Source: an uncultured Tepidisphaeraceae bacterium
GTDB taxonomy: Bacteria > Planctomycetota > Phycisphaerae > Tepidisphaerales > Tepidisphaeraceae
DNA: 50,710 nt
Assembly: GCA_964493365.1 (NCBI GenBank)
Contig: CAZBOE010000008.1
Coordinates: forward strand, 281-50,990
Direction of reading: 5' to 3'
The notes below the pieces were generated by a model. The model did not search any database. It worked only from the letters and a program-made list of their open reading frames with translations, and was not told where the DNA came from. This document shows, in pieces, positions 1,659 through 41,191 of this stretch (the stretch's first letter is position 1; each line of letters begins with the position of its first letter). The position numbers and the translations under genes are program-made.

Positions 1659-1739
1659 AGCCCAGCCGCATGAGCCCGGAGCCGCTCGATTCGCCGCGGC
1701 ATGGCGCAGGCCGCCAAGACCGCGACGAGCCGACAGCGC

Positions 1740-1776
<37 letters not shown>

Positions 1777-1833
1777 CGCCAGCCCACATCCGTCGCCCGG
1801 CGTCGCCCTGTATCACGCGGCCGCTCGGCATGC

Positions 1834-2700
1834 TCATCGCGTTCGCCCGCTCTTCGCTGCGCGATCTGTGTGCTTTGCCCCTTTGCGTCCTTTGTCGCCG
1901 CCACGCTTCATGATCGTCCGAAGCGCGCGCCCGCAGATGCGTTTGGTTTCAGTGCCCGATGATTCCCGCATCCAGCGGTCGCAGACCGACTTCACCCACG
2001 CCGGCTTCGACTTCGATGCGTCGTTGAGCCAGTTGGCCACCGAATCCTGCACATACTTCGCGGGGTCGCCGCACAGCGGCTCAAGCAGCGGAAGGCCGAT
2101 CGACGGCTCATCGACCAGCTCGGGGATCATCGTCGTCCAGACCCCGCGTGGCCGGGTTGATTCGGTGGCAAAGCGCCGGATGGCCGCGCTGGGGCTGGCC
2201 GTCCACGGCGTCAGCAGCGCGAGGGCTTGCCGGATGTCGGCCGCCAGGTGAGGGCGGATCGCCATCCACGCCCACTCGCGCACGCCCATGTGCGGGTCAT
2301 CCGCAAACGGTCGGACAAGCTCCAGGCGCGCCTCCAGCGAGAGCCCTTCGCCCCGCACCATCGCATAACACGCCCAGCCCCGCGCGGTGTCGCTGAGCGA
2401 TCGCGCCAGCGGCCTCACCAGCTTGTGCGGATACCCTGCCAATATCCGGCCGGCCAGATCCATCCGCCGCGTGATGCCAAGCTGCGCCGCCTCATCCAGC
2501 CGCGCGAGATCGCCTGCCGACACAAACGGCGCCACGGCCTTCATCAGCACCGCAAAATCAATCGTGAGCATGTCGGCCAGGTTGACCGACTCGGCCGTGC
2601 CCGCACACATCGCCGCCCGGTGTGCCGCGGGCACGCCCGCCAGCGATGACCGCTTGGCCACGCCCACACCCGGCTTCACGTTCGCCGCCGATCTGGGCAT
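1834..2700 (-). CDS. DNA alkylation repair family protein (AlkD-like HEAT-repeat, PF08713-like)
   Basis: DPHMGVREWAWMAIRPHL, RFATESTRPRGVW and DPAKYVQDSVANWLNDASK are characteristic of the AlkD-like family. GAGGAG lies 8 nt upstream of the ATG at 2700. Confidence 0.75.
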   Translation of the reverse strand: MPRSAANVKPGVGVAKRSSLAGVPAAHRAAMCAGTAESVNLADMLTIDFAVLMKAVAPFVSAGDLARLDEAAQLGITRRMDLAGRILAGYPHKLVRPLARSLSDTARGWACYAMVRGEGLSLEARLELVRPFADDPHMGVREWAWMAIRPHLAADIRQALALLTPWTASPSAAIRRFATESTRPRGVWTTMIPELVDEPSIGLPLLEPLCGDPAKYVQDSVANWLNDASKSKPAWVKSVCDRWMRESSGTETKRICGRALRTIMKRGGDKGRKGAKHTDRAAKSGRTR

Positions 2701-2728
2701 AGACGGGTCTCCTCAATCTGCCGGCCGC

Positions 2729-3478
2729 TCAGAGGGTCGCAAGCCGCAGCCTGACCAGCAGGTCGCTCAGTCCGGCCTGCGCCGTGGGCAACTCCGGCAG
2801 CGTCGATTCGTTCATTTCCTGCTCAAGACACGACACCAGCCGACGATACTCCGCCTCATGAAACGGCATGTCGGCGGCGTCAAGCGTACCTTGCTCGGGC
2901 CCGCCCAGCTTCCGCGCGATGAGGTCGGAAATGTAGCCGAGCCTGTACACCTCATTGAGGTGAACCAGGTTGGCCTCGACCACGTGTGCCCGCATGAGGT
3001 GTATCCCGGTCAGCAGCACACGATAGGTATAGAGCAGCGGCTTCACCCGCGGCCGCTCTTCCTTGGCAAACAGCTTCCACTGCGTCTGGGCGAAACCGAG
3101 ATAGTGATGAGCATGGAAGCGGGTGAGGCACTGCCGCGAAAGCTCGATCAACTCGCGATGCGCCTCGGTCGTGCGCAGCACGATCGGCGAGAGCAGTTGC
3201 TCCAGCACATAACCATTCTTCTTGAGCATCATCGCCATGAACTTCGCCAGGTCGTGCGTCACCAGATCGACCTCCAGCCCCTGTTCGACGGTCGATACCT
3301 CGATCGTGTCCTGCCGCGCATGAAGCCCGAGCGCCTCGCACGCCGGCACGACGTGCGTGCCGCGCAGGTCATAGTCAGAGTCGGGCGACGGAAAGCCATA
3401 AAGGTGGGCGCCGCTGACGGTCAGGAAGACCAGCGGATAGGGCTGTGCCGCGATGATCGGATCGAGACGGACATCCAT
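2729..3478 (-). CDS. Pol-beta superfamily nucleotidyltransferase, PF10127 (RlaP/YcgL-like) family
   Basis: The N-terminal VSGAHLYGFPSPDSDYDLRG matches the G[SG]-x-YG...DxD NTase active-site pattern. It is followed by a helical C-terminal domain typical of the family. It is a paralogue of the upstream gene. Confidence 0.7.
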   Translation of the reverse strand: MDVRLDPIIAAQPYPLVFLTVSGAHLYGFPSPDSDYDLRGTHVVPACEALGLHARQDTIEVSTVEQGLEVDLVTHDLAKFMAMMLKKNGYVLEQLLSPIVLRTTEAHRELIELSRQCLTRFHAHHYLGFAQTQWKLFAKEERPRVKPLLYTYRVLLTGIHLMRAHVVEANLVHLNEVYRLGYISDLIARKLGGPEQGTLDAADMPFHEAEYRRLVSCLEQEMNESTLPELPTAQAGLSDLLVRLRLATL

Positions 3479-3493
3479 TCCCGCATCGTCGAT

Positions 3494-4630
3494 TCACGGC
3501 AGCCCATCGGCAAGTGCCGCGCGCCGAGCGTCGATCAGCAGCCCATTGGCGCCGCGATAGTCGGGCTGATCGGGCAGCGAGGTCGCGGCGGCCGCCTCGT
3601 CTAACTCCCGGTGAAGCGAAAGCCGCCAGCGGTCGATCTCGTCAAGCGGCCGCTCGCCCCGGCGAATGGCCAGTAGCGCATCACGCAGGGCAGGGTCCAC
3701 CGCCACCGGCACATAACCCTCCCTGAGCACGACAATGCCTGAATGCAACAGGCGGATCAGGTGCATCACGTGCTTCCATTTGGGCTCGCCGCGGTGGCTC
3801 AGATCGGCGTTGAGCTTGCGAAACTGGCTAAGCACGTATCCGTTGTAGGTCTGATAGACCAGCCGAGAGAGAAACTTCGATCGCACCTCGATCAGCCGAC
3901 GACCCAGAGGCGTTGCGAACTCGACGATCGGCGAGTAAAGCACCTCCAGCACGTTCGGGTTGGCCTTGAGCGCCAGCACGATGAACTTCTGCAACTCCCA
4001 ATAGGTTTCCTGCGCTGCGTCGTTGTCGATCTGCTCGGGCGTGCCAGAGAGCGACCAGTGCTGCTCCGCCGTCGGCAGGTAGACGCCGCGCCGGTCGGTA
4101 TCGGATGCCTCGGTCGCCAGACCGTAAGCGCGCGACCCGATGACCGCGCGGACAATGACACGATCCATCAAGCCCGACGCGGCAATGGTCATGCTCCCCC
4201 CGGCGGCGTCGGCCAGGTAATGCGATTGCACCGCCATCTCATGCCGCATCAGCGACGCCTCACGCCCATCGACAAACCGCACGCGATAGGCATGCACCAG
4301 GTCGGCCGGTGCCCGGACGATCAACCCCACGACGCCGCGCGTATGCACCACCTGTCCCTGCTCGCCGCGAACATCGATCAGCGCGACAACCTGCGTGCCG
4401 GTCGGCAGGATCGCCGGAAGCGTCGCCGGATCGCTCGGCCGCACCGATACACCACGCACATCGACGTGACCTGCCGCCGGCAAATCACTCGCCGGCAACA
4501 AATCACCCGGCGCTGCCGCAACACTCGCCACCGGCCCATCCACTGACACGCACGCATCACCCTGCTCCATCGCATTTCTTTGCGCCGGCGCAATTCTTTG
4601 CACTGGTGAATCGTCGTGCGAAGCAGCCAT
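3494..4630 (-). CDS. PF10127 (RlaP/YcgL-like) nucleotidyltransferase with a ~150-aa unassigned N-terminal extension
   Basis: IGSRAYGLATEASDTDRRGVYLP is an NTase motif. The downstream WELQKFIVLALKANPNVLEVLYSP...YNGYVLSQF aligns by eye with the shorter paralogue. The start codon is uncertain. Confidence 0.7.
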   Translation of the reverse strand: MAASHDDSPVQRIAPAQRNAMEQGDACVSVDGPVASVAAAPGDLLPASDLPAAGHVDVRGVSVRPSDPATLPAILPTGTQVVALIDVRGEQGQVVHTRGVVGLIVRAPADLVHAYRVRFVDGREASLMRHEMAVQSHYLADAAGGSMTIAASGLMDRVIVRAVIGSRAYGLATEASDTDRRGVYLPTAEQHWSLSGTPEQIDNDAAQETYWELQKFIVLALKANPNVLEVLYSPIVEFATPLGRRLIEVRSKFLSRLVYQTYNGYVLSQFRKLNADLSHRGEPKWKHVMHLIRLLHSGIVVLREGYVPVAVDPALRDALLAIRRGERPLDEIDRWRLSLHRELDEAAAATSLPDQPDYRGANGLLIDARRAALADGLP

Positions 4631-12453: not shown

Positions 12454-15354
12454 TCAAGTGGTCACGCTTTTCCCGAGCGCCTTCACCGCCTCGGCGTCGC
12501 GCAGGCTCAGGTCGGGGAAGGCTGGGTCTGATCCGACATCCGCGCGGCGCTTCCAGCTTCGAGCACAGGCCTTGTACGTCTCACGGGTGTCGATCACCTC
12601 GACCCGCGCGGGCGTGCCCGCGGCGACGTCGACGAACCGGTGGCTGCCGGCCCCGACAAGGTCTTCAAGGTCGGGCCCGTAGGCCGACATCCACGCCCGG
12701 GCTGCCGCATCGACGTAATACACCACTTCCGCGTCCAGCGCCTTGTTGAGGCCCGCCGACTTCTTCAGCCCGTCGAGCTGAAGCAGCGCCGAATCGCGCA
12801 GCGCCATCAGCGTCGCCCATTGCTGCGCGTGCTGGGGCGTCGGCGCCTGTGAACGCGCCTGGGGGAACAGCGCAAGGTGCACGCTGCCCAGCGCCGCGTC
12901 ATCGCCTGACCGCTTGAGGTGCTCCCAGGCTTCGTCCGCCGTGAAGACGATCACCGGCGCCAGCATCCGCACCAGCGCGTCGGCCATGCGGTGCATCACC
13001 GTCTGACAGCGCCGCCGCAGCAGACTGCCCGGCCGCTCGCAATACAGCCGGTCCTTCATCGCGTTGCCATAGACTGCGCTGATCTGCACGTTGCAGAACT
13101 CGAAGACGCTGCGGAAAACCACGTGCGTCTCGCAGGCGTCATAGGCGCGGGTCACCGCCGCGATCAGCCCGTCGAGCTGCGCCATCGCCCAGCCGTCGAG
13201 GCTGTCGGCCGGCGGCTCAACGGCGTCCCGCGCGGGGTCGAAGTCGTAGAGGTTGCTCAGCAGGTAGCGGATCGTGTTGCGGATCTTGCGATACTTGTCG
13301 CCAAACTCCTTGATCACCGCCGGCGATGTGGGAATGTCGCCTTCGTAATCGACGCTGCACGTCCACAGCCGCAGCAGGTCGGCGCCGTGGGTCTCGATCT
13401 CCTTCGTGGCCGTCACATATTCCTTGTCGCTCTTGCTGACCTTCGTGCCGTCGGGCTTGACCACAAACCCGTGCGTCAACACCGCCTTGAAAGGCGGCCT
13501 GCCCATCGCGCCCAGGCTCGGCAAAAGCGATAGCTGAAACCACCCGCGGTGCTGGTCCGACCCTTCGAGATAGAGGTCGGCCGGATACGTCAGCCCGCCC
13601 GCCTCCGCCGCCTCTCGGGCGCGCAGCACCGCATTCCACGAACTGCCCGACTCAAACCACACGTCGAAAATGTCATTCTCTTTCCGCAGCTTGTCTTTGG
13701 GGAACTCGGGCCCCGGGTCAAAGTCACCGAGCAACTCGGCCGGCGAATCGGTGAACCACGCGTCACTGCCTTTTTCGGCAAACCGCTTCGCCACCGCACG
13801 CACGCTCTGCGGCGTCAGCAGCGCGTCGCCCGCCTCGTTGTAAAACACCGGGATCGGCAGCCCCCACGCCCGCTGGCGCGAGATGCACCAATCCGGCCGG
13901 CTCTCGAGCATGCCGGTGATCCGGGCCTTGCCCCACTCGGGGACAAACTTCACCTGTTCGCCCACCGCATGCGCCGCCCGCTGGCGGATGCTCATCGGCG
14001 TGTCGCCATGCACCACCAGCGGACGATCGATCCCCACAAACCACTGCTCGGTCGCGCGGAAGATCGTCGGCGTCTTGCTGCGCCAGTCGTGCGGATAGCT
14101 GTGCACGATCTCCTGCTCGGCAAACAGCGCCCCGACCGACTTGAGGTGCTCGATCACCAGGCCGTTGCCCTCCCACACCACCTTGCCCCGGAGCCACTCG
14201 GGCACACTGCCGTCAAACCGCCCGTTGGCCAGCACAGGGCAATACACCTCCAGCCCGTGGGCGATGCCGGTGGCATAGTCTTCTTCGCCGTGCCCCGGCG
14301 CGGTGTGGACCAGCCCCGTGCCGTCGGTCGTCGTCACATAATCCGCCACAAGCACCTTGCCCACGCGCGGCGTCGCTTCGCCCTCGCCCACCGTCATGAA
14401 CGGGTGCCGATACTCCTGCCCCGCCAGGTCCTTGCCCAGCACGGTCTTGATCACCGTGTAGTCGGCCACCCGGCCCTTAAACGTCTGCTCCACCAGCGCC
14501 GCCGCCACGATGTCAATGTGCCAGAACTCGTTGTGCTGGTGTTTGACCAGCGCATATTCCACCTCGGGCCCGACCGCGATTGCCAGGTTGGCCGGCAGGG
14601 TCCAGGGCGTGGTCGTCCAGGCGAGGAAGCCGACCCGGGCGTTCACCCGCACGTCGAACGCCGCCTTGAATGCCCCCGGGTTGGCCGACTCAAACCGCAC
14701 GTACACGCTGCGGTCCTTGACGTCCTTGTACTCCAGCTCGGCGTCCGCCAGCGCCGTCTGGTTGGCGATCGACCAGTGCACCGGCTTGAGCTGCTTGTAG
14801 ACCAGCCCCGCCTCGACGAATCGGGCAAACACCTCGAGCGTCGCCGCCTCATAGTCGGGCGTCATCGTCAGATAGGGCCGCGCCCAGTCGCCCAGGATGC
14901 CCAGCCGCTGAAACTGCTCGCTCTGGATACCCGCATACTTCGCCGCATAGTCAAAGCACCGCCGCCGAACGTCCACCGTGCTCATCTCGCGCAGCTTCGG
15001 GCCCAGATCCTGCTGGATCTTGTGCTCGATCGGCAGCCCGTGGCAGTCCCAGCCCGGCACATACGGACACCGAAACCCGCGCATCGACCTGTAGCGCAGC
15101 AGCACATCCTTGAGCGTTTTGTTGATCAGGTGCCCGATGTGGATCTCGCCATTGGCGAACGGCGGCCCGTCATGCAGCACCCACGTCGGCGATCCCGCCC
15201 GCGCCGACAGCAACTGCCCGTAGAGGTCCGCCGACTTCCACCGCGCCAGCCGCGCCGGCTCGTTTTGCACCAGCTTCGCCTCCATCGCAAACGCCGTCTG
15301 CGGGAGGTTGAGCGTGTCTTTGTAAGAGGCCTTTTTCTCCGAGGTCTGGCTCAT
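12454..15354 (-). CDS. ileS: Isoleucine--tRNA ligase
   Basis: YKDTLNLPQTAFAM and PPFANGEIHIGHLINKTLKD (HIGH) are present, along with a KVSKS variant of KMSKS. The 966-aa length fits type 1 IleRS. Confidence 0.95.
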   Translation of the reverse strand: MSQTSEKKASYKDTLNLPQTAFAMEAKLVQNEPARLARWKSADLYGQLLSARAGSPTWVLHDGPPFANGEIHIGHLINKTLKDVLLRYRSMRGFRCPYVPGWDCHGLPIEHKIQQDLGPKLREMSTVDVRRRCFDYAAKYAGIQSEQFQRLGILGDWARPYLTMTPDYEAATLEVFARFVEAGLVYKQLKPVHWSIANQTALADAELEYKDVKDRSVYVRFESANPGAFKAAFDVRVNARVGFLAWTTTPWTLPANLAIAVGPEVEYALVKHQHNEFWHIDIVAAALVEQTFKGRVADYTVIKTVLGKDLAGQEYRHPFMTVGEGEATPRVGKVLVADYVTTTDGTGLVHTAPGHGEEDYATGIAHGLEVYCPVLANGRFDGSVPEWLRGKVVWEGNGLVIEHLKSVGALFAEQEIVHSYPHDWRSKTPTIFRATEQWFVGIDRPLVVHGDTPMSIRQRAAHAVGEQVKFVPEWGKARITGMLESRPDWCISRQRAWGLPIPVFYNEAGDALLTPQSVRAVAKRFAEKGSDAWFTDSPAELLGDFDPGPEFPKDKLRKENDIFDVWFESGSSWNAVLRAREAAEAGGLTYPADLYLEGSDQHRGWFQLSLLPSLGAMGRPPFKAVLTHGFVVKPDGTKVSKSDKEYVTATKEIETHGADLLRLWTCSVDYEGDIPTSPAVIKEFGDKYRKIRNTIRYLLSNLYDFDPARDAVEPPADSLDGWAMAQLDGLIAAVTRAYDACETHVVFRSVFEFCNVQISAVYGNAMKDRLYCERPGSLLRRRCQTVMHRMADALVRMLAPVIVFTADEAWEHLKRSGDDAALGSVHLALFPQARSQAPTPQHAQQWATLMALRDSALLQLDGLKKSAGLNKALDAEVVYYVDAAARAWMSAYGPDLEDLVGAGSHRFVDVAAGTPARVEVIDTRETYKACARSWKRRADVGSDPAFPDLSLRDAEAVKALGKSVTT

Positions 15355-15428: not shown

Positions 15429-16931
<1,503 letters not shown>

Positions 16932-16999
16932 ACAAAACCTCGTTTCTTCAGCCGATCACCCGGCACCCCGTCCGGTCGGGAAGGGAATGCCCTGACAAC

Positions 17000-17033
17000 A
17001 AAAAACCCCGAAACGACGGTGATCGCTTCGGGG
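17000..17033 (-). terminator. Intrinsic terminator located 5' of the MATE start codon (part of the attenuator)
   Basis: The minus-strand RNA reads CCCCGAAGCGAUCACCGUCGUUUCGGGG followed by UUUUUUGUU. The stem is CCCCGAA/UUCGGGG plus inner CGA/UCG. Confidence 0.7.
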
Positions 17034-17074
17034 CGGTTCTTTTTCCGGTGTTATGGATGAGTCGGTGGGGAAGA

Positions 17075-17161
17075 CTACCGGCCATGCGTAACACGCAACC
17101 CGCCAGGGCGATCACCGTCGATGACCTCGACGGCCGCGATGTTGCATGCAATGGCTTTCAT
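17075..17161 (-). CDS. Candidate 28-codon leader peptide ORF (MKAIACNIAAVEVIDGDRPGGLRVTHGR) of the MATE attenuator
   Basis: The ATG at 17161-17159 is preceded by GGAAGAGGAACG. The ORF covers attenuator segments 1 and 2. It is not in the supplied ORF track because it is under 60 aa. Confidence 0.4.
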   Translation of the reverse strand: MKAIACNIAAVEVIDGDRPGGLRVTHGR

Positions 17162-17200
17162 CGAAAACGTTCCTCTTCCGGGTTCCTCTGCCGCGGGCGA

Positions 17201-17228
17201 ATACTACCCGACCCACAAGACAAAGCAA
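17201..17228 (-). promoter_or_regulatory. Sigma-70-like promoter candidate for the MATE leader (TTGCTT-16 nt-TAGTAT)
   Basis: Reverse complement: the -35 TTGCTT lies at 17228-17223 and the -10 TAGTAT at 17206-17201. The site is about 40 nt upstream of the leader ORF ATG. Confidence 0.45.
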
Positions 17229-17515
17229 ACGGCCATTTCGTCTGCCTGTTCGATGCCTCCCCCCCGCGCCAAACCAGCCAACACGGATCAGCGCCTTGCG
17301 GGGCCGAGCCGTCGCCGGCGGGCATGACCTCCCCGGGGGTCGCACCCATGGGCTACAAACCCGAGCCCTGCTGTGGGACCGTGCACGCAAAGTGGCGCGA
17401 AGCGGCTCACCTCGATATACTGCCGAGCACCACGGGGGGCACTCAATGCGATGCGAGAGCACCACACGCAACGGCGTCCCCAAATCACGAAAACGTTCCT
17501 TCAAAGGTGGCAAAG

Positions 17516-18760
17516 GTGGCAAAGGTCAATCGAGACGTTGTATTGCGATCGCTTGTGTTCGTCGCAGTCGCGATGCTTGGCACCCATGTCCGCGCGGTCG
17601 AACTGCAATGTCTCAACGGCACGATCACCATCGACTTGCCACCAGACCTTTTGACAGACACGCCCAAGCCCGGCGCTCCCGCATCCGGGCGAATCGCCGA
17701 AGGTGACGGAATCGAAATCGCGATCGACGCCAATGTCGTCCCGGCCGACGTCGTAGCCGGAGATCCTTTCGAGTACTTCAGGCAGCGGCCGACGCTCTAC
17801 CGGCTGGTTCAGGTTGAGGAAACAAAACACCAGTCAGCCGGTGGACTGCTCGGAACGGTCGAGCGCCTCGACGTCAACCAGTTTCAGTCGAACCTGCGTC
17901 GCGAGCAGGACGCACCGGTCACGCTCTACACGCTGGTGATCTACGACTTCGGCACTGCGATCAACATCCGCGCCGATGTGGGATGGTGGGTCGATCCGGT
18001 CCACCGCGAGCGGGTCAAGTCGATTTTGCGCAATGTCCGCACGACACGTAATCCCAAGCTGCCTCACGGCGTCACCGTGGGATCGCTCGTTGAGCTTCGC
18101 GCCTACGAGGCGGCGGATCATGGCAATCGCGCCACCACATTGCCTGCCAATCCTTCCACCCAACCTTCCGCCGATCCGTCGTCGGTCATTGCCGTCGAAA
18201 CGGCGAAACGCGACCCCAACCCCTATGACATATTTGCAGCGCTCATGAAGCAGCATGGTGCCGTGCCAGTTCAAGACGCGGTGACCCAGACCATCGATGG
18301 CGTGACGGTGATCGTCCCCGCGCCGCCTCATGCGTGGAGGGCCGCTGCTGATGCGGGTGAATTGTCATACATGATGGTTGGCGTCGGCTTCTGCACGGGG
18401 ATGACGCAGCAAAGCCGAAAGACCGTTCCTGAGGTGGTGCGGAGTATGCTCGAGGTGCATCAGAAGGGCATGGGTCTGAGCGTCGAAGACGTCAAACTCG
18501 GCGATAAGCCTGCCAGTCTGGTGCGGGTGGTGATGGACGCGCAACCGTTCTGGATGCCGCCCAATACCCCGCCCGAGCAACCTCGCCGCGCCGAGGGGAT
18601 CAACCTTGTCTTCGAGATCAATGGCCGGACAGTCGTCATCTCCATTTTCTACTCGAGCTCTGCCACCGACGCGCAACGAAAGCTGTATCGTGACGCATTG
18701 CTCGGTGTCACCCTCAAGCCGGCCGACAAACCCGTAGAAGGCGAGCCCGCCGCGCCCTGA
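17516..18760 (+). CDS. Hypothetical secreted protein (no recognisable domain)
   Basis: The reading frame is long, with a signal-peptide-like start (..VLRSLVFVAVAMLGTHVRA). AAAGGTGG lies upstream of the GTG at 17516, and alternative starts are 17507 and 17543. GC content is visibly lower than in neighbouring genes. Confidence 0.6.
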   Translation: MAKVNRDVVLRSLVFVAVAMLGTHVRAVELQCLNGTITIDLPPDLLTDTPKPGAPASGRIAEGDGIEIAIDANVVPADVVAGDPFEYFRQRPTLYRLVQVEETKHQSAGGLLGTVERLDVNQFQSNLRREQDAPVTLYTLVIYDFGTAINIRADVGWWVDPVHRERVKSILRNVRTTRNPKLPHGVTVGSLVELRAYEAADHGNRATTLPANPSTQPSADPSSVIAVETAKRDPNPYDIFAALMKQHGAVPVQDAVTQTIDGVTVIVPAPPHAWRAAADAGELSYMMVGVGFCTGMTQQSRKTVPEVVRSMLEVHQKGMGLSVEDVKLGDKPASLVRVVMDAQPFWMPPNTPPEQPRRAEGINLVFEINGRTVVISIFYSSSATDAQRKLYRDALLGVTLKPADKPVEGEPAAP

Positions 18761-18813
18761 CGGGCATTGCGGTCGCGCTGGTCCACGAGGCTTCTTCGGG
18801 CAACAGTCACTCG

Positions 18814-18857
18814 GTTTAGAAACAAAGACGGCGAGCCGCACGCGCGACCCGCCGTCT
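18814..18857 (-). terminator. Candidate intrinsic terminator for the VWA-rhombosortase-small ORF operon
   Basis: The minus-strand reads AGACGGCG-16 nt-CGCCGUCU followed by UUGUUUCU. The stem is 8 bp but the loop is large. Confidence 0.4.
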
Positions 18858-19035
18858 GCACGGTGGGGATCTAACCCCGGGGGAACCAGGTCCCCGCTGA
18901 CACGACGGAACATCCGTCGTCGCTTATGTCCCCGCCTCTCGTGCGGCCCGGTCGACAACGGCTGAGCGATCCTGCGAATTCGCTCGACCCGACGACGACC
19001 ACCACCCGCCGCACATCCACTGCGTCGCGCTCTGA

Positions 19036-19158
19036 TCACTTGACGGGCGTTCGAAACAGCATCACCCACAAGACCAGCCCCGCCAGCGGCACACACGCCG
19101 CCAGCGCTGACACCGGCCGCAGCGGCAACACCGCATCGTGAAACCCGCAAGCCAACAT
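19036..19158 (-). CDS. Candidate 40-aa single-TM small protein (MLACGFHDAVLPLRPVSALAACVPLAGLVLWVMLFRTPVK)
   Basis: The ATG lies 2 nt after the rhombosortase TAA stop and is preceded by GGGAGG. GC3 is about 33/40, matching coding regions here. It contains a hydrophobic helix. It is not in the ORF track because it is under 60 aa. Confidence 0.45.
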   Translation of the reverse strand: MLACGFHDAVLPLRPVSALAACVPLAGLVLWVMLFRTPVK

Positions 19159-19160
19159 CG

Positions 19161-19886
19161 TTACCTCCCTTGCCTGTACGAAAGACGACCGCCAGAAAGC
19201 GCCGCAGCGTTCGGCATCGCCGTTTCACCGCTCGGCATCGCCGATCCACCGTTTGGTCGCGCCGTTCCTTCGCTTGGGCAGACATGTCCAAGGGCTGCCG
19301 CCGCCCGGTCGGCCAGCACAAACCCCAGCCCCGCCGCCGCGCCAGCCAGATGAGCCAGCGGCACCGGCACAAACGCCCCGCCCGCAAACACGCTCGCGCC
19401 GCTGGCCATTTCCAAAGCGCACTTGACCGCCAGCCCGGCCACGACCACCACCGCCGGCAGCCAGCGCGCCGGGTCCGTCCGTCTGTCGATCCCGCGATCG
19501 CCCTTCATCGCCCACCAGACCGCCGCGGCCACGACCAGCCCGCAGTCGATGCCGCTGAGCCCGCGGTAGGCGTCGAGTGATGTCCCCAGCGCCACCGCCC
19601 ATCCGGTTGCCGCCGCCAGCGCCGCCAGCAGCAGCCCATGGCGAAGCCGGCCCATCCAGCGCTCGCACAGGCTGCCCGCGGCCGCGAAGACGGCGACATC
19701 CCATCCGAGGTGCGACCACGACCAGTGCGCCAGATGGGCCGTCATCACACCCGCCAGGCCCACGGGGCTCGTTTCCATGCGGCTTGGCCTCAGCTCGACC
19801 GCCGTCGCCAGACCGGGCACCACCTCGACCGCGGCGGCCGCCAGACAGATCGCCATCGTGATGCAGGGAATCGTCGACCAACGCAT
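19161..19886 (-). CDS. rrtA: Rhombosortase (rhomboid-family intramembrane serine protease dedicated to GlyGly-CTERM proteins)
   Basis: The rhomboid motifs are HLAHWSWSHLGWD (HxxxxHxxxN/D-like), GLSGIDCGL (GxSG catalytic Ser) and PLAHLAGAAAGL (catalytic His). The protein is multi-TM. GGAGG lies 8 nt upstream of the ATG. The gene is adjacent to a GlyGly-CTERM protein. Confidence 0.75.
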   Translation of the reverse strand: MRWSTIPCITMAICLAAAAVEVVPGLATAVELRPSRMETSPVGLAGVMTAHLAHWSWSHLGWDVAVFAAAGSLCERWMGRLRHGLLLAALAAATGWAVALGTSLDAYRGLSGIDCGLVVAAAVWWAMKGDRGIDRRTDPARWLPAVVVVAGLAVKCALEMASGASVFAGGAFVPVPLAHLAGAAAGLGFVLADRAAAALGHVCPSEGTARPNGGSAMPSGETAMPNAAALSGGRLSYRQGR

Positions 19887-19938
19887 GGCAAACCTCCGTC
19901 CGGCAGCCGCCCCTTCGCTACACCCGCTCGATCCACGG

Positions 19939-22020
19939 CTAAGCCGCTCTCCGGCCCTGCCGTCGAAGCAGGCCCGCGGCGCCCGCCCCGGCGATCAGCA
20001 GCGCCATCACCGGATCGATCGCGCCGCCGCCGTTGCCGCCGCCCACGCCCGGCGCGTTGCCCGGAAACGCCGGCTGCTGGTGATCCACCCGGTAATCGCG
20101 AACCGGAGCGTTCGCCCGCGCCGCCTGCGCAGTCTGCTCGGCCGCCGAGCGCTCCTTGTTGCGCCGCTCGATCCCGTGCCGCTCGAAGTCGCTGTCGGCC
20201 AGCACCAGCATCGCCGTGTGATCCGTCACGATCTGCTGATCCACCCCGATCGACACGATCGCACCGCGCGCTTCGCCTTGATCCATCTGACCGCGATCGA
20301 CCATCGCCTCGATCTGCTCCACCCGACGCATCGCCCACAGCCGCTCGAGCTCGGGGTTGTCGGTGTCCACCTCGGGCAGGTCGAACTCCGCGACATACCG
20401 CTTGCTTTCACCGGTGATCCGCGTGTCGAGCGTCAGCTTCGCCCGACCCGGCTTCTCATACCGGCCGAAAATCACCAGTTGCTGCCCGCGATAAAGCTTG
20501 CCCGGCTCGGCGCCCACCAGGTCAAACGTCCTCACGCCGCTCAGGCTGACCTTTACGTCATGCATCGCCTCGTGGGTGATCTTGCTTCGCGCCAGCACAA
20601 GCTGACCGACGATGTCGTCCTGGTTCGACACCGACGCATAGAACCCGCCGCTGGCGTCGCAGATCACCCGCATCAGCGGCCAGTTCGCCTCGTTGCCCAT
20701 CAGGAAGCCGAAGACGCGCACGTCATACTTCTTCATCAGCTTGTCGAACGACGCAGGGTCGACCACGCCGGTGTTGGTCACGCCGTCGGTCACCATCACC
20801 ACGCTGCTCGCTCGGTCGGCATCGAGCCCCCGGACCGCCATTTCCAGCCCCGCATAGAGGTTGGTGCCCGACTGCGGCACCAGTTGTTTGACCGCCGCGA
20901 TCGCCCTGGCCACCTCCTCAGGCGTTGCCGGGCGCATGCCCCCCAGCAGGTCTGACGCCGTGTCGGAAAACGTGATCACCCGAAACCGGTCGTCCGGCCG
21001 CAGGCTGCCGATCGCCCGCTCCACGCCCGCCACCAGCGACTGAATCTTGCCCGCCATGCTTCCCGACACGTCGAGCACAAAAACATAATCCGCCCCGCTC
21101 GACAGCGGCTTGAGGTCCACCCCCGGCGTCAGTACGGCCATGAACGTCCCGGGCTTGTCGCCCGCCTGGCGATACGGAATCACCTCGACCCGCCCCGGCA
21201 GGTTGTCCGCCAGCCGGTAGTAGACGACCAGGTCGCTCGTCAGCGACGCCTGCACCTGCTCGACCTTCACGCGGTAATGCCCCTCACCCACCTGCGTCGT
21301 CACCGCCCCCGCGACGTTGGGCACGCGAATGTCCGCCACCGCCACGGCGCTCTTGAGCTCGATGTCCGCCGAGAACATCCCCTCCACCCTCTGGTTGAGC
21401 GTCCAGAACGCCTCGGCCGCCACATCGGTGCCGCCGCTCTCCAGCGGATACACCAGCCGCCCGACCGCCGTGTCGATCGACAGCGACTGGTAGTAGACAT
21501 AGGTCACGACCACCTCGGCGTTCGCCCGCACCGGCGACACCGCAAACTCGAACGTGCGGTAGTCGTTCTTCGCCGCCAGGCCGGCGTCCTTGCCCTGGTC
21601 GCGCTCTTCCTTGTAGACCCGCTCCGCCTCGCCGCGCTCGATCACCTCGCCGCGCAGTTCAAGCTCGCCGGTCTGGATGATCACCTCCGACAGCGCCGCC
21701 CCCTGCGGCACGGGGCAGGCGTAGATCGCTCCAAGGTCACGGTCGTTGGGGTTGAAAAACGTCTGCCGCACCTGCATCCGCGCAAAGCCGTTGTTGATCA
21801 CGGCAGACAGATGGTGGTCGCGAATCTGGATCGGCGCGTGATTCGCCCCGACCGGTGTGAGCGTTCCGGCCGCCCGGGCCTGCACCGCAAGCATCAGCAC
21901 AACCACCACCACCAGCAGCCCCACGGCCACCGCGCGAACAGGGCCGCAGCCGCGCCGCCGGCCCGGCTCGGTCGGCCGTGGAGACACTGCGCCGCTCTGC
22001 ATGGATTCACGGCCGTTCAT
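19939..22020 (-). CDS. VIT + von Willebrand factor type A domain protein with a C-terminal GlyGly-CTERM sorting signal
   Basis: The signal/TM segment is VAVGLLVVVVVLMLAVQARA. A VIT-like region (VINNGFARMQVRQTFFNPND...) is followed by a VWA MIDAS motif (VFVLDVSGSM). The C-terminus is GGGNGGGAIDPVMALLIAGAGAAGLLRRQGRR. The start at 22020 (MNGRES, GAAAGGA Shine-Dalgarno) is preferred over 22074. Confidence 0.8.
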   Translation of the reverse strand: MNGRESMQSGAVSPRPTEPGRRRGCGPVRAVAVGLLVVVVVLMLAVQARAAGTLTPVGANHAPIQIRDHHLSAVINNGFARMQVRQTFFNPNDRDLGAIYACPVPQGAALSEVIIQTGELELRGEVIERGEAERVYKEERDQGKDAGLAAKNDYRTFEFAVSPVRANAEVVVTYVYYQSLSIDTAVGRLVYPLESGGTDVAAEAFWTLNQRVEGMFSADIELKSAVAVADIRVPNVAGAVTTQVGEGHYRVKVEQVQASLTSDLVVYYRLADNLPGRVEVIPYRQAGDKPGTFMAVLTPGVDLKPLSSGADYVFVLDVSGSMAGKIQSLVAGVERAIGSLRPDDRFRVITFSDTASDLLGGMRPATPEEVARAIAAVKQLVPQSGTNLYAGLEMAVRGLDADRASSVVMVTDGVTNTGVVDPASFDKLMKKYDVRVFGFLMGNEANWPLMRVICDASGGFYASVSNQDDIVGQLVLARSKITHEAMHDVKVSLSGVRTFDLVGAEPGKLYRGQQLVIFGRYEKPGRAKLTLDTRITGESKRYVAEFDLPEVDTDNPELERLWAMRRVEQIEAMVDRGQMDQGEARGAIVSIGVDQQIVTDHTAMLVLADSDFERHGIERRNKERSAAEQTAQAARANAPVRDYRVDHQQPAFPGNAPGVGGGNGGGAIDPVMALLIAGAGAAGLLRRQGRRAA

Positions 22021-22083
22021 GTCATGTCCTTTCGCTAAGCAACACCCGTCGTCCCGCCGACGCGGCGAAGACACGCCTCTAAT

Positions 22084-22098
22084 GCGAGCCGCACGCCG
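22084..22098 (-). promoter_or_regulatory. Weak sigma-54 (-24/-12) promoter candidate upstream of the VIT-VWA gene
   Basis: The minus-strand GGCGTG-CGGC-TCGCA compares with the consensus GGCACG-N4-TTGCA. The GG and GC elements have the correct spacing. Such matches arise by chance in GC-rich DNA. Confidence 0.3.
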
Positions 22099-22206
22099 CC
22101 GCGGACGAGTTTGTTAGTGCTTTGCCTTTAAGGCTTTAGGGGTGGCTTGGGTACGGCGGCCGGGTGCGGGATGTTCATCGGGTGTACACTGCTATACACT
22201 TGGTGA

Positions 22207-23934
22207 ATGCCCCTCCTTCGTCCCGATGAGCGCGCGTTTGCCGTGGCGGTCTCGCAGTTGACCTACTGCAACCCGTTCGCTCAAAAGCGGATTGAGCTCG
22301 AACGATCCGCCCTGGGTGACGCCTTCTCAGAACCGGCGGCCGTCTGGGCCTTTGATCCCAACCGCGAGGGCGACCGCCCCAACGTCGGACGCATCCTCGA
22401 GCGGCTGACCCCGCTGATGGAGTCGATGCGCAACCGCCTCGCCGACGGACAGGCCGCATCCCGCGACGAACGGGCCGTCTACGAGGGCATGGTCCTTTAC
22501 CTGCTCTATTACGAGTTCTGGCAGCAGTTCCAGAGGCTGGTGGAAGAGGCCGGCTTCGACCATGACGGCCGGGACGCCCCCGAGAGCGCCCCGCGCCTCT
22601 CCGGCGACGCCGCGCGCGACGCGGCCAGAGACTCGCCAAGGTCGCCCAGGCCCGGGCGGCGGCGGATCGCTTACGCCGCGTTTCTCGAGCGTGCGAAACA
22701 CTTCGTCGACCTGCCCGGCCGATCGTCAGAGACCGCGCCGCCCGTCGAGGCGCAGGCACTGACCGCTCCATCGGGTCACGCCGCTTCGGGCGTCGCATCC
22801 GCGCCCGCGGATCCCGGCCCGCGCACGCCGGCCGGGCATGATCCGCTGACCGATCCGGCGCACCTGTTCGCGCTGCTGTTCCAGGTCAGACGCGCGTTCT
22901 ATTACATCTTCACCTTCATCACCGGCGCGTCGGCACCCGCCGCGAGGCTGCGCGCCAACTGCTGGGAATCGATCTTCACGCACGACATGCGCCGCTACGC
23001 CCACCACCTCTACGCCCGCAGCAGCGACTGGGCCACGCTGATCACCGGCGCCTCGGGCACCGGCAAAGAACTCGTCGCCCGCGCCGTTGCGCTATCGCGC
23101 TACATCCCATTCGATCCGGTGGCGCAGACGTTCGCCGCTGACTTCCGGCAGCTGTTCATTCCGCTCAACCTCTCGGCGCTCTCGCCCACGCTGATCGAGT
23201 CGGAGCTCTTCGGCCACAAGCGCGGCGCGTTCACCGGCGCCCTGGAAGACCGGCCCGGCTGGCTGGAAACCTGCGACCCGATGGGCACGGTTTTCCTCGA
23301 CGAGATCGGCGATGTCGCGGCGCCGGTGCAGGTGAAGCTGCTGCGGGTGTTGCAGTCGCGGCAGTTTCAGCGGCTGGGCGATGCCGCCCCAAGGACGTTC
23401 GCCGGCAAGATCATCGCCGCGACCAACCGTGACCTTCCCGCGATGATGCGCGAGGGCGCGTTTCGACAGGACTTCTATTACCGCCTCTGCGGCGACATGA
23501 TCCGAACGCCCACGCTGTCTGAGCAGCTTGCCGACAGCCCGGCCGAGCTGCCGGCGCTGCTGCTGTTCATCGCCCGGCGCATCGCAGGCGACGCGGCGCG
23601 CGATGTGGCCGCCGAGGCGCAGCGCTACATCGAGAATCAACTGGGGCGCGGCTACGGCTGGCCGGGCAACTTCCGCGAACTCGAGCAGTGCGTGCGCAAC
23701 GTGATGGTGCGCGGAAGCTATGTGCCGTCGGATACGACCGTCTCCACCGCAGGCGGCCTCGAACGCGCGCTCGACAGCTGCCGCCTCACGGCCGACCAGC
23801 TCATCTCCCTCTATTGCCGACGGGTGTATGGCAAGACCGGCAACTACGTCGCCACCGCGCAACACCTCGGGCTCGACCGCCGGACCGTCCGCGCCCGGGT
23901 GGTTGCCGACGGCGCGGCGGAGGATGGCGAATGA
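22207..23934 (+). CDS. Sigma-54-dependent transcriptional activator (bacterial enhancer-binding protein, AAA+) with an unassigned N-terminal domain
   Basis: The protein carries Walker A (GASGTGKE), ESELFGHKRGAFTGA (GAFTGA loop), Walker B (VFLDEIGD) and a C-terminal HTH (NYVATAQHLGLDRRTVRARV). The first ~270 aa show no receiver, GAF or PAS signature that I recognise. Confidence 0.85.
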   Translation: MPLLRPDERAFAVAVSQLTYCNPFAQKRIELERSALGDAFSEPAAVWAFDPNREGDRPNVGRILERLTPLMESMRNRLADGQAASRDERAVYEGMVLYLLYYEFWQQFQRLVEEAGFDHDGRDAPESAPRLSGDAARDAARDSPRSPRPGRRRIAYAAFLERAKHFVDLPGRSSETAPPVEAQALTAPSGHAASGVASAPADPGPRTPAGHDPLTDPAHLFALLFQVRRAFYYIFTFITGASAPAARLRANCWESIFTHDMRRYAHHLYARSSDWATLITGASGTGKELVARAVALSRYIPFDPVAQTFAADFRQLFIPLNLSALSPTLIESELFGHKRGAFTGALEDRPGWLETCDPMGTVFLDEIGDVAAPVQVKLLRVLQSRQFQRLGDAAPRTFAGKIIAATNRDLPAMMREGAFRQDFYYRLCGDMIRTPTLSEQLADSPAELPALLLFIARRIAGDAARDVAAEAQRYIENQLGRGYGWPGNFRELEQCVRNVMVRGSYVPSDTTVSTAGGLERALDSCRLTADQLISLYCRRVYGKTGNYVATAQHLGLDRRTVRARVVADGAAEDGE

Positions 23935-39305: not shown

Positions 39306-41009
<1,704 letters not shown>

Positions 41010-41191
41010 CGCAAGGTGGGTTTGGTATCCGCCCGGAACAACGGGCTCACGGCTCAACTTACGCCTTGTTCGAGCCAGTCCAAGTGAGGGACGGAAGATT
41101 ATCCAACACATCTCTAAACCCTAAACTGCCGGTGTGTTTTCGCTGACCGATCGCTAACTCCGGCCGACCTGCTCGCCCGCACGACCGACAC

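Follow-up and report, generated by a model that had tools for sequence, protein, structure and literature searches.

Gene arrangement of the locus

Does an exported VIT-VWA protein have, in the gene that directly follows it, its own C-terminal processing protease, and do the two belong to the rhombosortase systems? The question is raised by a minus-strand locus in the 50,710-nt stretch of DNA analyzed here as a whole (the window). Our analysis points to a dedicated rhombosortase/substrate operon as the probable answer. In it an ITIH-like VIT-VWA protein and its processing protease would be co-transcribed, probably under the control of a sigma-54 activator. The locus is composed as follows:

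19939..22020, minus strand: exported VIT-VWA (ITIH heavy-chain-like) protein of 693 aa, putative rhombosortase substrate (ORF with Shine-Dalgarno site, Pfam, homologs, AF2 model)
19887..19938, minus strand: 52-nt spacer from the substrate gene to the protease gene, with GGAGG before the protease ATG
19161..19886, minus strand: rhombosortase-clade rhomboid intramembrane serine protease of 241 aa, catalytic S111 and H179 (Pfam, TIGR03902, clade HMM, AF2 model)
19036..19158, minus strand: hydrophobic ORF of 40 codons downstream of the protease gene (GGGAGG Shine-Dalgarno sequence, GC3 0.80), doubtful as a member of the module
18826..18857, minus strand: terminator-like hairpin with a 14-bp stem followed by TTGTTTCT, likely the operon end

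The first-pass annotation had described the VIT-VWA protein, the rhomboid 52 nt downstream and the 40-codon ORF on the minus strand, and all of these features are present in the sequence. Its central proposal was supported: a cassette of substrate and rhombosortase-type protease, centred on a VIT-VWA protein, in a genome from outside the Proteobacteria. The best matches of the IleRS fall in the Tepidisphaeraceae (Planctomycetota). The module had been drawn to position 22098, which is no ORF boundary and overshoots into the 5' leader. The 40-codon ORF, counted as a part of the module, is not conserved in the loci of relatives: a search of 85 loci, of which 83 are related, gave no significant similarity to it (best E 0.12). 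Additionally, its GGGAGG overlaps the end of the rhomboid gene.

The VIT-VWA gene and the rhomboid gene very probably make up a genuine operon of two genes, in a planctomycete from a hot spring. The region was identical, without any difference, in contigs from two hot-spring metagenome runs; the window sequence was found in DNA metagenome runs only. Co-transcription of the two genes is plausible from the sequence, since the 52-nt spacer is free of terminator-like sites, one is present after the last ORF and orthologous gene pairs overlap by 4 nt. Beyond the hairpin, a plus-strand ORF converges on the operon and ends at 18760.

The VIT-VWA protein and its C-terminal tail

The following features were assigned within the VIT-VWA gene:

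21871..22020, minus strand: N-terminal signal peptide region, aa 1-50, with an h-region at 30-46 followed by QARA/AG (read from the sequence; putative cleavage site)
21493..21822, minus strand: VIT domain, aa 67-176 (PF08487, 78.2 bits, cutoff 26.5)
20614..21084, minus strand: VWA domain with a complete MIDAS (PF00092, 49.4 bits, cutoff 23.8)
19942..20043, minus strand: C-terminal tripartite sorting signal consisting of GGGNGGGAIDP, a TM helix (670-685) and RRQGRR, followed by AA

The ORF starts at an ATG after AAAGGA, and an alternative GTG at 22074 would extend the protein to 711 aa. Its GC3 of 0.87 is typical for coding sequence in the window. With both domains above the gathering cutoffs and a complete MIDAS, the protein is a VIT-VWA/ITIH-like protein. 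All five MIDAS residues (D317-x-S319-x-S321, T386 and D412) were invariant in an alignment of 36 homologs, and more than 1500 homologs with 55-62% identity were found. The best NCBIfam match was TIGR03788 with 196.7 bits, well below the cutoff of 551.65.

In the AF2 model (pLDDT 84) only two helices, both of TM character, lie outside the globular fold. These are the signal peptide helix 29-44, preceded by a disordered N-terminus, and helix 670-692 at the C-terminus, leaving no other TM segment. The best PDB match of the model was human ITIH1 (6FPY, E 1e-35, approximately 595 columns).

The tail consists of the Gly-rich motif at aa 660-670, a hydrophobic segment at 670-685 and the basic cluster at 686-691, with two residues left. 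In the model a disordered linker (637-669) leads into the terminal helix. This corresponds to the GlyGly-CTERM architecture, in which 0-5 residues follow the basic cluster (PMC3237569). Among 183 ORFs of the window, this protein is the only one with such a tail at its extreme C-terminus. The family consensus, derived from 203 members, reads GG-A-[ILFV]-[DE]-[PR].

The earlier assignment of the tail as a GlyGly-CTERM signal thus stands for its tripartite layout and position, but not for the profile scores. On TIGR03867, the nearest GlyGly-CTERM model, the tail reached 13.6-13.9 bits, below the cutoff of 19.7. No match to TIGR03501 was obtained for 10 tails (E<=10) or for 36 full proteins (E<=1). 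TIGR03867 matched 9 of 36 relatives at E<=1, the best with 29.8 bits. The tail encoded beside the Cupriavidus CH34 rhombosortase likewise gave no GlyGly-CTERM match; this species is among those with adjacent pairs in the 2011 study of Haft and Varghese (PMC3237569).

The rhomboid protease

The rhomboid gene has its GGAGG 8 nt before the ATG, and the product matched the Pfam Rhomboid family with 32.6 bits (cutoff 22.6). It carries HWSWSHLGWD, GLSG (aa 109-112) and AHLAGAAAG (aa 178-186). The Ser of GLSG (TM4) and the His of AHxxGxxxG (TM6), the catalytic pair, were invariant in 78 syntenic sequences. All residues that are invariant in this clade are kept in the window rhomboid (H54, H59, S111, K155, E159, H179 and G182). 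The AF2 model (pLDDT 82) shows six TM helices and superposes on GlpG with a TM-score of 0.73.

The best match was TIGR03902, the rhombosortase model, with 69.5 bits (E 2.9e-19), below the cutoff of 84 and covering profile positions 19-153 only. Three syntenic orthologs (L001-L003) passed this cutoff with 111.7, 124.5 and 111.9 bits, respectively; the classical Aeromonas enzyme reached 163.9 and that of Cupriavidus 125.6 bits. An HMM built from 77 syntenic orthologs gave the window rhomboid 144 bits, and the GlpG model TIGR04239 gave it 16.4 bits. Judged by profile scores, the window rhomboid is closer to the rhombosortases than to GlpG-type rhomboids, as the first-pass annotation had expected. 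However, trusted cutoffs had also been named there as the measure of the assignment, and formally they speak against the window copy, as both the protease and the tail fall short.

Two further hallmarks deviate. The WRxxS/T motif listed for loop L1 of rhombosortases (PMC3237569, Fig. 4 legend) reads A45-G46-V-M-T49 in the window, whereas 69 of 78 syntenic orthologs have the W and 67 have the R. The fourth residue past the catalytic Ser (SGMLH) was described as His "in virtually all rhombosortases" (PMC3237569); the window has S111-G-I-D-C115, and across the clade this position is Ser in 47, Cys in 17, Thr in 8 and His in 1 of 78 sequences. The motif HxxxxHxxxD had been taken as rhombosortase-like. 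The classical Aeromonas enzyme instead combines HxxxxHxxxN with GLSGLLHG, whereas the clade linked to VIT-VWA proteins carries HxxxxHxxxD and GLSG[ILV]D[SC]A, with Asp replacing Asn and Ser or Cys the hallmark His. By the scores of its protease and tail and by the missing WR, the window copy of the cassette is a divergent one. The putative cognate target, with the tripartite tail, is encoded by the adjoining gene 52 nt upstream.

Conservation of the gene pair in relatives

In 76 of the 79 related loci that could be evaluated, the gene directly after the VIT-VWA gene, in the same orientation, encodes a rhomboid, so the pairing is not due to chance. These loci belong to at least eight phyla or groups, i.e. 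Verrucomicrobiota, Planctomycetota, Acidobacteriota, Myxococcota, Desulfobacterales, Lentisphaerota, Kiritimatiellota and Sumerlaeota. The 4-nt overlaps between the orthologous genes imply translational coupling. The nearest homologs of the window rhomboid also follow a gene for a protein of 663-700 aa; this gene was called VIT-VWA for one of them (P0006) and was without a Pfam record for another (P0002). In one syntenic locus (L002) there is, apart from the adjacent rhomboid gene, another one that encodes a zinc ribbon; this indicates that the rhomboid next to the VIT-VWA gene is a specialised paralog.

The divergent sigma-54 activator and its putative targets

A conserved third component of the locus, a divergently encoded sigma-54 activator, had been overlooked in the first-pass annotation. 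Upstream of the VIT-VWA gene the following features were found:

22207..23934, plus strand: divergent sigma-54-dependent activator (bEBP; PF00158, 156 bits)
22182..22199, no strand: palindrome GTGTA-N8-TACAC, candidate activator binding site
22078..22101, minus strand: weak candidate sigma-54 -24/-12 element, CGGCGTG-N4-CTCGCA

The bEBP carries a Walker A motif, GAFTGA and a C-terminal HTH, and its N-terminal domain of 270 aa is unassigned; in NCBIfam it gave generic bEBP matches only. Of 72 loci, 53 have an ortholog of it upstream of the VIT-VWA gene in divergent orientation. Upstream -24/-12 promoters were detected in 34 of 71 loci, as against 9 and 3 for two control regions; they were more common where the bEBP is present (29/52) than where it is absent (5/19; p = 0.03). 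The operon is thus probably under the control of the divergently encoded activator, and for the window genome itself sigma-54 control would follow from its relatives. With a PWM built from the sites of 41 relatives no clear sigma-54 promoter was found in the window. The candidate element scored 4.8 bits, a value reached by 9% of shuffles. The palindrome is the sole match to its pattern in the 50.7-kb window (0.01 expected, with the pattern chosen post hoc), and relatives have TGTACATAAAATGTACA-type palindromes upstream of their promoters.

Proposed processing and alternative explanations

Most likely, the adjoining VIT-VWA surface protein is the protein that the rhombosortase trims and anchors. 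The 693-aa protein would be exported by Sec via its signal peptide and then tethered to the cytoplasmic membrane by its helix at aa 670-685, with RRQGRR facing the cytoplasm. The adjoining six-TM rhomboid with its Ser111/His179 dyad would recognise the Gly run, AIDP and the helix and may cleave in or beside the Gly run. By analogy to VesB and RssP of Vibrio cholerae, the new C-terminus could be passed on to a glycerophosphoethanolamine lipid. The ectodomain, which bears the MIDAS, would remain associated with the membrane or surface and may bind a putative ligand in a metal-dependent manner. Cleavage and attachment of glycerophosphoethanolamine are established for VesB of V. cholerae only, which is cleaved after the second Gly (PMC6219818), and the tail alone is enough for RssP-dependent membrane association (PMC13393428). 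Surface display in Vibrio needs a type II secretion system; none was seen in the 50 kb of the window.

Instead of transferring its substrate, the rhomboid might simply cut the C-terminal anchor and free the VIT-VWA ectodomain to the periplasm or medium, with no lipid re-attached. Such release is the classical behaviour of rhomboids, unlike the sortase-like transfer in Vibrio. The chemistry of this clade need not copy that of RssP, since it differs from classical rhombosortases near the active site (Asp for Asn in HxxxxHxxxN, Asp at Ser+3, Ser or Cys for His). Moreover, VesC is released from Vibrio cells, and regulated release was raised as an option in 2011 (PMC3237569). We nevertheless regard shedding as unlikely. 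Sortase-like systems have this very layout, a tripartite tail at the far end of the protein, and the only available rhombosortase biochemistry shows lipid attachment. At the same position, homologous VIT-VWA proteins bear LPXTG together with a dedicated sortase, or PEP-CTERM together with an exosortase, which indicates covalent anchoring as the common theme.

Trimming and anchoring by the rhombosortase would also not take place if the window protease were decaying or inactive, with the VIT-VWA protein staying C-terminally anchored in the inner membrane or being processed by another enzyme. Its TIGR03902 score is 40-55 bits below those of the three syntenic orthologs, the match begins only after the L1 loop and the WR motif is missing. 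Exactly at the place of this motif a shifted frame encodes ..AAW..WRV, and with it spliced in the rhomboid reaches 152 instead of 144 bits on the clade HMM, which suggests a compensated double frameshift. A non-conserved 50-aa C-terminal extension of low GC3 (0.58) and a weak or absent sigma-54 promoter point in the same direction. However, the ORF is open from end to end with a GC3 of 0.86 over the catalytic core, no clade-invariant residue has been lost and the rhomboid fold is predicted with confidence. Approximately 12% of the syntenic orthologs are likewise without a canonical WR, and the substrate gene is fully conserved, so that we consider decay improbable. It is far less credible still that the adjacency is incidental, i.e. 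that a generic housekeeping protease of the GlpG type acts on other substrates and the C-terminal helix is a mere membrane anchor. Although neither protein reaches a curated cutoff of the rhombosortase system and the only solved structures resembling the window rhomboid are those of GlpG, the synteny across many phyla largely refutes this explanation. Furthermore, the score on TIGR03902 is more than 50 bits above those on the GlpG models, the TIGR03902 cutoff is passed by L001-L003, and L002 encodes its other rhomboid separately.

Comparison with known systems

The first-pass annotation had called a dedicated cassette of this kind less familiar. This claim to novelty fails because the same cassette was described in 2011: Haft and Varghese treated dedicated adjacent pairs in a section of their own and in Table 3, among them those of Opitutus terrae and Rhodopirellula baltica, and described single-target pairs in Planctomycetes and Verrucomicrobia (PMC3237569). 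Of 21 single-target genomes, 16 had such a pair, and the sole target of R. baltica is an inter-alpha-trypsin-inhibitor-domain protein adjoining its rhombosortase (PMC3237569). Tails of the GlyGly-CTERM, LPXTG or PEP-CTERM type are seen on VIT/VWA homologs in Fig. 3C of that paper (PMC3237569). The window cassette is therefore a new example of a known system. As far as the descriptions of R. baltica and O. terrae allow comparison, it shares with these pairs the order of target gene and rhomboid gene, the VIT/ITI-VWA target, the tripartite tail and the occurrence in Planctomycetes/Verrucomicrobia. It differs in the scores of its protease and tail, which do not reach the curated cutoffs, and in the missing WR of the protease; additionally, a sigma-54 activator is not mentioned in that paper (PMC3237569).

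With VesB/RssP of V. cholerae the window pair has in common a rhomboid-family enzyme of the TIGR03902 lineage and a substrate with signal peptide, unstructured linker, Gly motif, TM helix and basic cluster. Vibrio, however, has six scattered targets (many-to-one), typically with an SGGS-like motif, and their surface display depends on type II secretion. The marine proteobacterial sortase/target system (TIGR03784/TIGR03788) has homologous cargo and the same logic of a one-to-one adjacent sorting enzyme. In contrast, the window target scores far below its cutoff and lacks LPXTG in its tail, and the partner is a rhomboid and not a sortase.

E. coli GlpG shares the six-TM rhomboid fold, the Ser/His dyad, HxxxxH and AHxxGxxxG. 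It has WR, Asn154 and Tyr205 where the window enzyme has AG, Asp63 and Cys115, it has no adjacent dedicated substrate, and GlpG models give the window enzyme 16 bits.

Human ITIH1 (6FPY) resembles the VIT-VWA protein over the full-length fold, including the VIT-like region, the VWA domain with MIDAS and a C-terminal helical region, at an identity of approximately 17%. The sequence alignment spans the VWA domain to aa 621, and the MIDAS aligns with D298 of ITIH1. In ITIH1 a large propeptide is removed and the C-terminal Asp becomes ester-linked to chondroitin sulfate; no rhomboid is involved. Both proteins have a disordered stretch before the C-terminal processing site, putative in the bacterial protein, which is a likeness of position: Asp672 of ITIH1 lies 44 residues past the last aligned residue and the bacterial Asp669-Pro670 lies 48 past it.

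Organization of the VIT-VWA/rhomboid operon

On the minus strand, three consecutive ORFs run from 22020 down to 19036. The VIT-VWA gene, the rhomboid gene and the 40-codon ORF named in the first-pass annotation were all found in the sequence. The end coordinate assigned there to the module (22098) lies in the leader and does not coincide with any ORF boundary.

Features of the operon and its surroundings
~17531-18760, plus strand: convergent ORF of ~409 aa, signal-peptide-like N-terminus, sharing the hairpin at 18826-18857 with the operon
18826-18857, minus strand: strong hairpin with T-run, between the operon and the convergent ORF ending at 18760
19036-19158, minus strand: 40-codon ORF, start 2 nt past the rhomboid stop, GGGAGG ahead
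19161-19886, minus strand: rhomboid ORF, 241 aa, start 52 nt past the VIT-VWA stop, GGAGG 8 nt upstream
19939-22020, minus strand: VIT-VWA ORF, 693 aa, ATG with AAAGGA ahead
22207-23934, plus strand: sigma-54-dependent activator (bEBP), divergent and upstream of VIT-VWA; PF00158 at 156 bits, GAFTGA, HTH and an unassigned 270-aa N-terminal domain

An alternative GTG at 22074 would lengthen the VIT-VWA protein by 18 residues. GC3 was 0.87 in the VIT-VWA gene, 0.86 in the rhomboid's catalytic core and 0.80 in the 40-codon ORF, resembling other genes of the window (66% GC). No terminator-like sites were found between the three ORFs. The stretch 16931-19036 was considered as a non-coding region, which was ruled out by the convergent plus-strand ORF inside it; this ORF gave no match in Pfam or NCBIfam.

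Contigs of two hot-spring metagenome runs, which may share their samples with the window, matched the region with zero differences. In a search for RNA support of co-transcription, the runs containing the window sequence were DNA metagenomes only. One contig in run X1 joined 20917 to 21872 and skipped 954 nt within the VIT-VWA gene, with a shorter side of only 21 letters; this junction probably stems from misassembly or from a rare variant. The isoleucyl-tRNA synthetase (IleRS, 12454-15354) shared 68-71% identity with Tepidisphaeraceae and Fontivita proteins, which places the organism in the planctomycete class Phycisphaerae.

Conservation of the gene pair

A genome scan with one genome per species yielded 401 confirmed VIT-VWA loci, and the 80 loci kept for analysis represented at least eight phyla. 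Where enough downstream sequence was available, a rhomboid gene was located 3' of the VIT-VWA gene on the same strand in 76 of 79 loci, and the two called genes often overlapped by 4 nt. The nearest homologs of the window rhomboid were likewise preceded by a gene of 663-700 aa, called as VIT-VWA for one locus (P0006) and without a Pfam record for the other (P0002). As strongly as comparative genomics allows, we infer that the VIT-VWA protein and the rhomboid are substrate and enzyme. Few single-target sorting systems are as widely conserved as the VIT-VWA/rhombosortase cassette.

The GlyGly-CTERM/rhombosortase system was defined by Haft and Varghese in 2011, who found protease and target to be consecutive in most of the genomes with a single target (16 of 21), among them Opitutus terrae and Rhodopirellula baltica (PMC3237569). 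The R. baltica target is given in their supplementary list as an inter-alpha-trypsin inhibitor domain protein, and their Fig. 3C shows VIT/VWA homologs with GlyGly-CTERM, PEP-CTERM or LPXTG tails, the latter with a dedicated sortase (PMC3237569). Since adjacent pairs from Planctomycetes and Verrucomicrobia had thus been described, the first-pass annotation was wrong to treat a dedicated cassette in a non-proteobacterial genome as unfamiliar. Its reading as a substrate-protease module was right in kind and overstated in novelty. The window pair is a somewhat divergent addition to the known dedicated rhombosortase/VIT-VWA system. As an annotation this is useful and unsurprising, adding one more carrier of a dedicated cassette, an uncultured Tepidisphaerales-like planctomycete from a hot spring. 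More is added by the results on the family, namely the wide conservation, a protease clade off the published hallmarks, and the usual presence of a sigma-54 activator and promoter.

In one related locus (L002), the dedicated rhomboid is accompanied 5 kb away by another rhomboid gene (13611-14013), which encodes a zinc ribbon at its N-terminus. The VIT-VWA-adjacent rhomboid is therefore a specialised paralog and not the only rhomboid of the cell.

The VIT-VWA protein and its C-terminal tail

Pfam identified VIT (78 bits) and VWA (49 bits) domains in the 693-aa protein. The MIDAS residues D317, S319, S321, T386 and D412 did not vary across an alignment of 36 homologs. The AlphaFold2 model (pLDDT 84, pTM 0.81) matched the human inter-alpha-inhibitor heavy chain 1 (6FPY) over ~595 columns with an E value of 1e-35, and the sequence could be aligned to ITIH4 and ITIH1 from the VWA domain through residue 621-624. 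Based on the fold match and this alignment, the protein is a full-length bacterial ITIH-like protein.

Its C-terminus consists of a disordered linker (637-669), GGGNGGGAIDP, a helix from 670 to 685/692, RRQGRR and two last residues. Over 203 family members the tail followed the consensus GG-A-[ILFV]-[DE]-[PR], succeeded by a helix and a basic cluster. On the GlyGly-CTERM subtype model TIGR03867 the window tail scored 13.9 bits, below the cutoff of 19.7; among the relatives, 9 of 36 matched at E<=1, with a top score of 29.8 bits. The generic model TIGR03501 did not match any of the isolated tails even at E<=10. This is weak evidence, since the nuclease tail beside the rhombosortase of Cupriavidus metallidurans CH34 was likewise unmatched. 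JDVT-CTERM, MYXO-CTERM, PEP-CTERM and PVV-CTERM were considered as identities of the tail and rejected, as their matches were sub-threshold and inconsistent. The window tail contained no invariant Cys, PEP or LPXTG.

The Cupriavidus pair is located on the megaplasmid of this strain (L084) and comprises an ExeM/NucH nuclease (841-3387) adjoining a rhombosortase (3318-4037, 125.6 bits). The nuclease tail reads GAGSMDPFTWL..RRR; a hydrophobic residue, Asp and Pro thus succeed the Gly motif in a beta-proteobacterial pair as well. The enzyme carries the motif GFSGVNYG and, like the window enzyme, lacks the hallmark His.

Among 183 ORFs of the 50-kb window no further tripartite tails were found. A 601-aa protein (39306-41111, minus strand), which contains an Endonuclease I domain and matches choice-of-anchor D below threshold, is probably a secreted nuclease and has no GlyGly-type tail.

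In V. cholerae, rhombosortase cleaves VesB behind its second Gly, whereupon the protein receives a glycerophosphoethanolamine and reaches the surface via the T2SS (PMC6219818), and the tail alone is sufficient for membrane association in Vibrio (PMC13393428). By analogy with VesB, the window pair would follow the same mechanism. We know of no rhombosortase outside Vibrio that has been studied biochemically. Culturable relatives (Rhodopirellula, Opitutus, Oleiharenicola, Fontivita) with such a one-enzyme/one-substrate operon would offer the cleanest setting for the cut site, the attached group and the MIDAS ligand.

Residues and hallmarks of the protease

The window protease scored 32.6 bits for Pfam Rhomboid and 69.5 bits for the rhombosortase model TIGR03902, compared with 16.4 bits for the GlpG model. 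Three syntenic orthologs scored 111-124 bits. Two unannotated loci from a plasmid collection, named via NCBIfam, served as comparators (a classical Aeromonas enzyme, 163.9 bits; the Cupriavidus enzyme, 125.6 bits). The first-pass annotation had set scores above the trusted cutoffs as its HMM test, which this copy formally fails: the protease stayed below with 69.5 against 84, as did the tail on TIGR03867, and TIGR03501 gave no match. Against an HMM built from 77 syntenic orthologs the protease scored 144 bits over its full length. It was modelled by AlphaFold2, with confidence, as a six-TM fold superposable on GlpG.

In the 78 rhomboids syntenic with VIT-VWA genes, H54, S111 (in GLSG), K155, E159, H179 and G182 were invariant, the pair K155 and E159 being located in TM5. 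His occupied position 59 in 76 of the 78 sequences. Asp was present in 73 at the Asn position of HxxxxHxxxN (D63 in the window) and in 73 at Ser+3 (D114). At Ser+4, Ser, Cys or Thr was found in 72 sequences and His in one; the window carries C115.

The founding paper gave as hallmarks SGMLH, with the His 'in virtually all rhombosortases', WRxxS/T and AHxxGxxxG (PMC3237569). In comparison, the VIT-VWA-linked clade retains AHxxGxxxG and not the His, and shows GLSG[ILV]D[SC]A and HxxxxHxxxD instead of SGxxH and HxxxxHxxxN. The window protease additionally lacked WR and had AG at this position. Among the rhomboids and tails of L025, L030, L041, L044, L054, L055, L058, L060 and L070, enzymes with WT, VR or IG replacing WR mostly belonged to targets ending in GALSP/GALPP and not in GAIDP, at Verrucomicrobiales-type loci. 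This could be a co-variation of enzyme and signal, confounded by phylogeny.

Sigma-54 activator and promoter

The activator gene had been missed by the first-pass annotation. An ortholog was found at the same divergent position in 53 of 72 loci. Upstream of VIT-VWA, a -24/-12 element was present in 34 of 71 loci, compared with 9 and 3 in two control regions. Its position was fixed at about 40-90 nt ahead of the VIT-VWA start, and it was commoner where the activator was present (p = 0.03). Relatives carried AT-rich palindromes of the TGTACAT-AAA-ATGTACA type ~100 nt further upstream. In the window, the best sigma-54 promoter candidate (22078-22101) was weak, its 4.8 bits being attained by 9% of shuffles. 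The intergenic GTGTA-N8-TACAC at 22182-22199 was the sole match in 50.7 kb with 0.01 expected for this post hoc pattern.

That the cassette usually occurs together with a sigma-54 activator and promoter suggests that display of the ITIH-like protein is a regulated response. A shallow literature search, in which 'rhombosortase' was not a required term for ranking, found no link between rhombosortase and sigma-54 among the ten best-ranked of 1,331 papers that matched two or more terms, a weak negative, and sigma-54 is absent from the text of the 2011 founding paper (PMC3237569).

A possible subclass and the ITIH parallel

A rhombosortase subclass with a mechanism of its own may be represented by the VIT-VWA-linked enzymes, given HxxxxHxxxD, Asp at Ser+3, Ser/Cys in place of the stacking His, and Lys155/Glu159. 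Such enzymes may be matched to a signal of their own, GGGA-[ILFV]-[DE]-[PR], and switched on by the dedicated sigma-54 activator.

In mammals, an Asp of the ITIH heavy chains (Asp672 in ITIH1) is the site of both cleavage and ester linkage to chondroitin sulfate. In human ITIH1 this Asp follows the last aligned position by 44 residues. Asp669-Pro670 of the window protein (20008-20013), which opens the C-terminal helix, lies 48 residues past the last ITIH1-alignable position. Given this similar spacing, a cleavage-coupled covalent C-terminal anchoring could be ancestral to the ITIH/VIT-VWA family; equally, Asp669-Pro670 may be a mere helix N-cap. If the anchoring is ancestral, the bacterial cassette would offer a tractable model of ITIH processing, a step that is still unexplained. 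It is rather improbable that all parts hold jointly, i.e. a distinct subclass with its own signal, a dedicated sigma-54 switch and an ancestral anchoring. The clade-specific residues around the active site, the link to sigma-54 and the positional ITIH parallel are leads, and not findings about the window alone.

Peculiarities of the window copy

The 40-codon ORF (19036-19158) encodes a hydrophobic product and has a strong Shine-Dalgarno site and a gene-like GC3. No significant tblastn match was found in 85 loci, 83 of them related, which argues against its place as a gene of the module in the first-pass annotation; it is either lineage-specific or spurious.

In the L1 loop, orthologs of the rhomboid read ..AA....WRL.T.HL, where the annotated frame of the window gives RPSRMETSPVGLAGVMTAHL (19745-19790, minus strand; codons 33-47). 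At the WR site the +1 frame reads GQAAWKRAPWAWRV and the ORF is rejoined at MTAHL, the segment restoring WR being ..AAWKRAPWAWRV. Splicing in the shifted segment raised the clade-HMM score by 8 bits, with frame and junctions chosen post hoc. The missing WR may be due to a compensated pair of frameshifts. An assembly error was rejected, as the contigs of two runs, which may share their samples with the window, were identical to it.

The last 50 rhomboid codons (19161-19310, minus strand) had no significant tblastn match in the 85 loci. This C-terminal extension had a GC3 of 0.58 compared with 0.86 for the core, was disordered in the AlphaFold2 model and may be a recent read-through extension.
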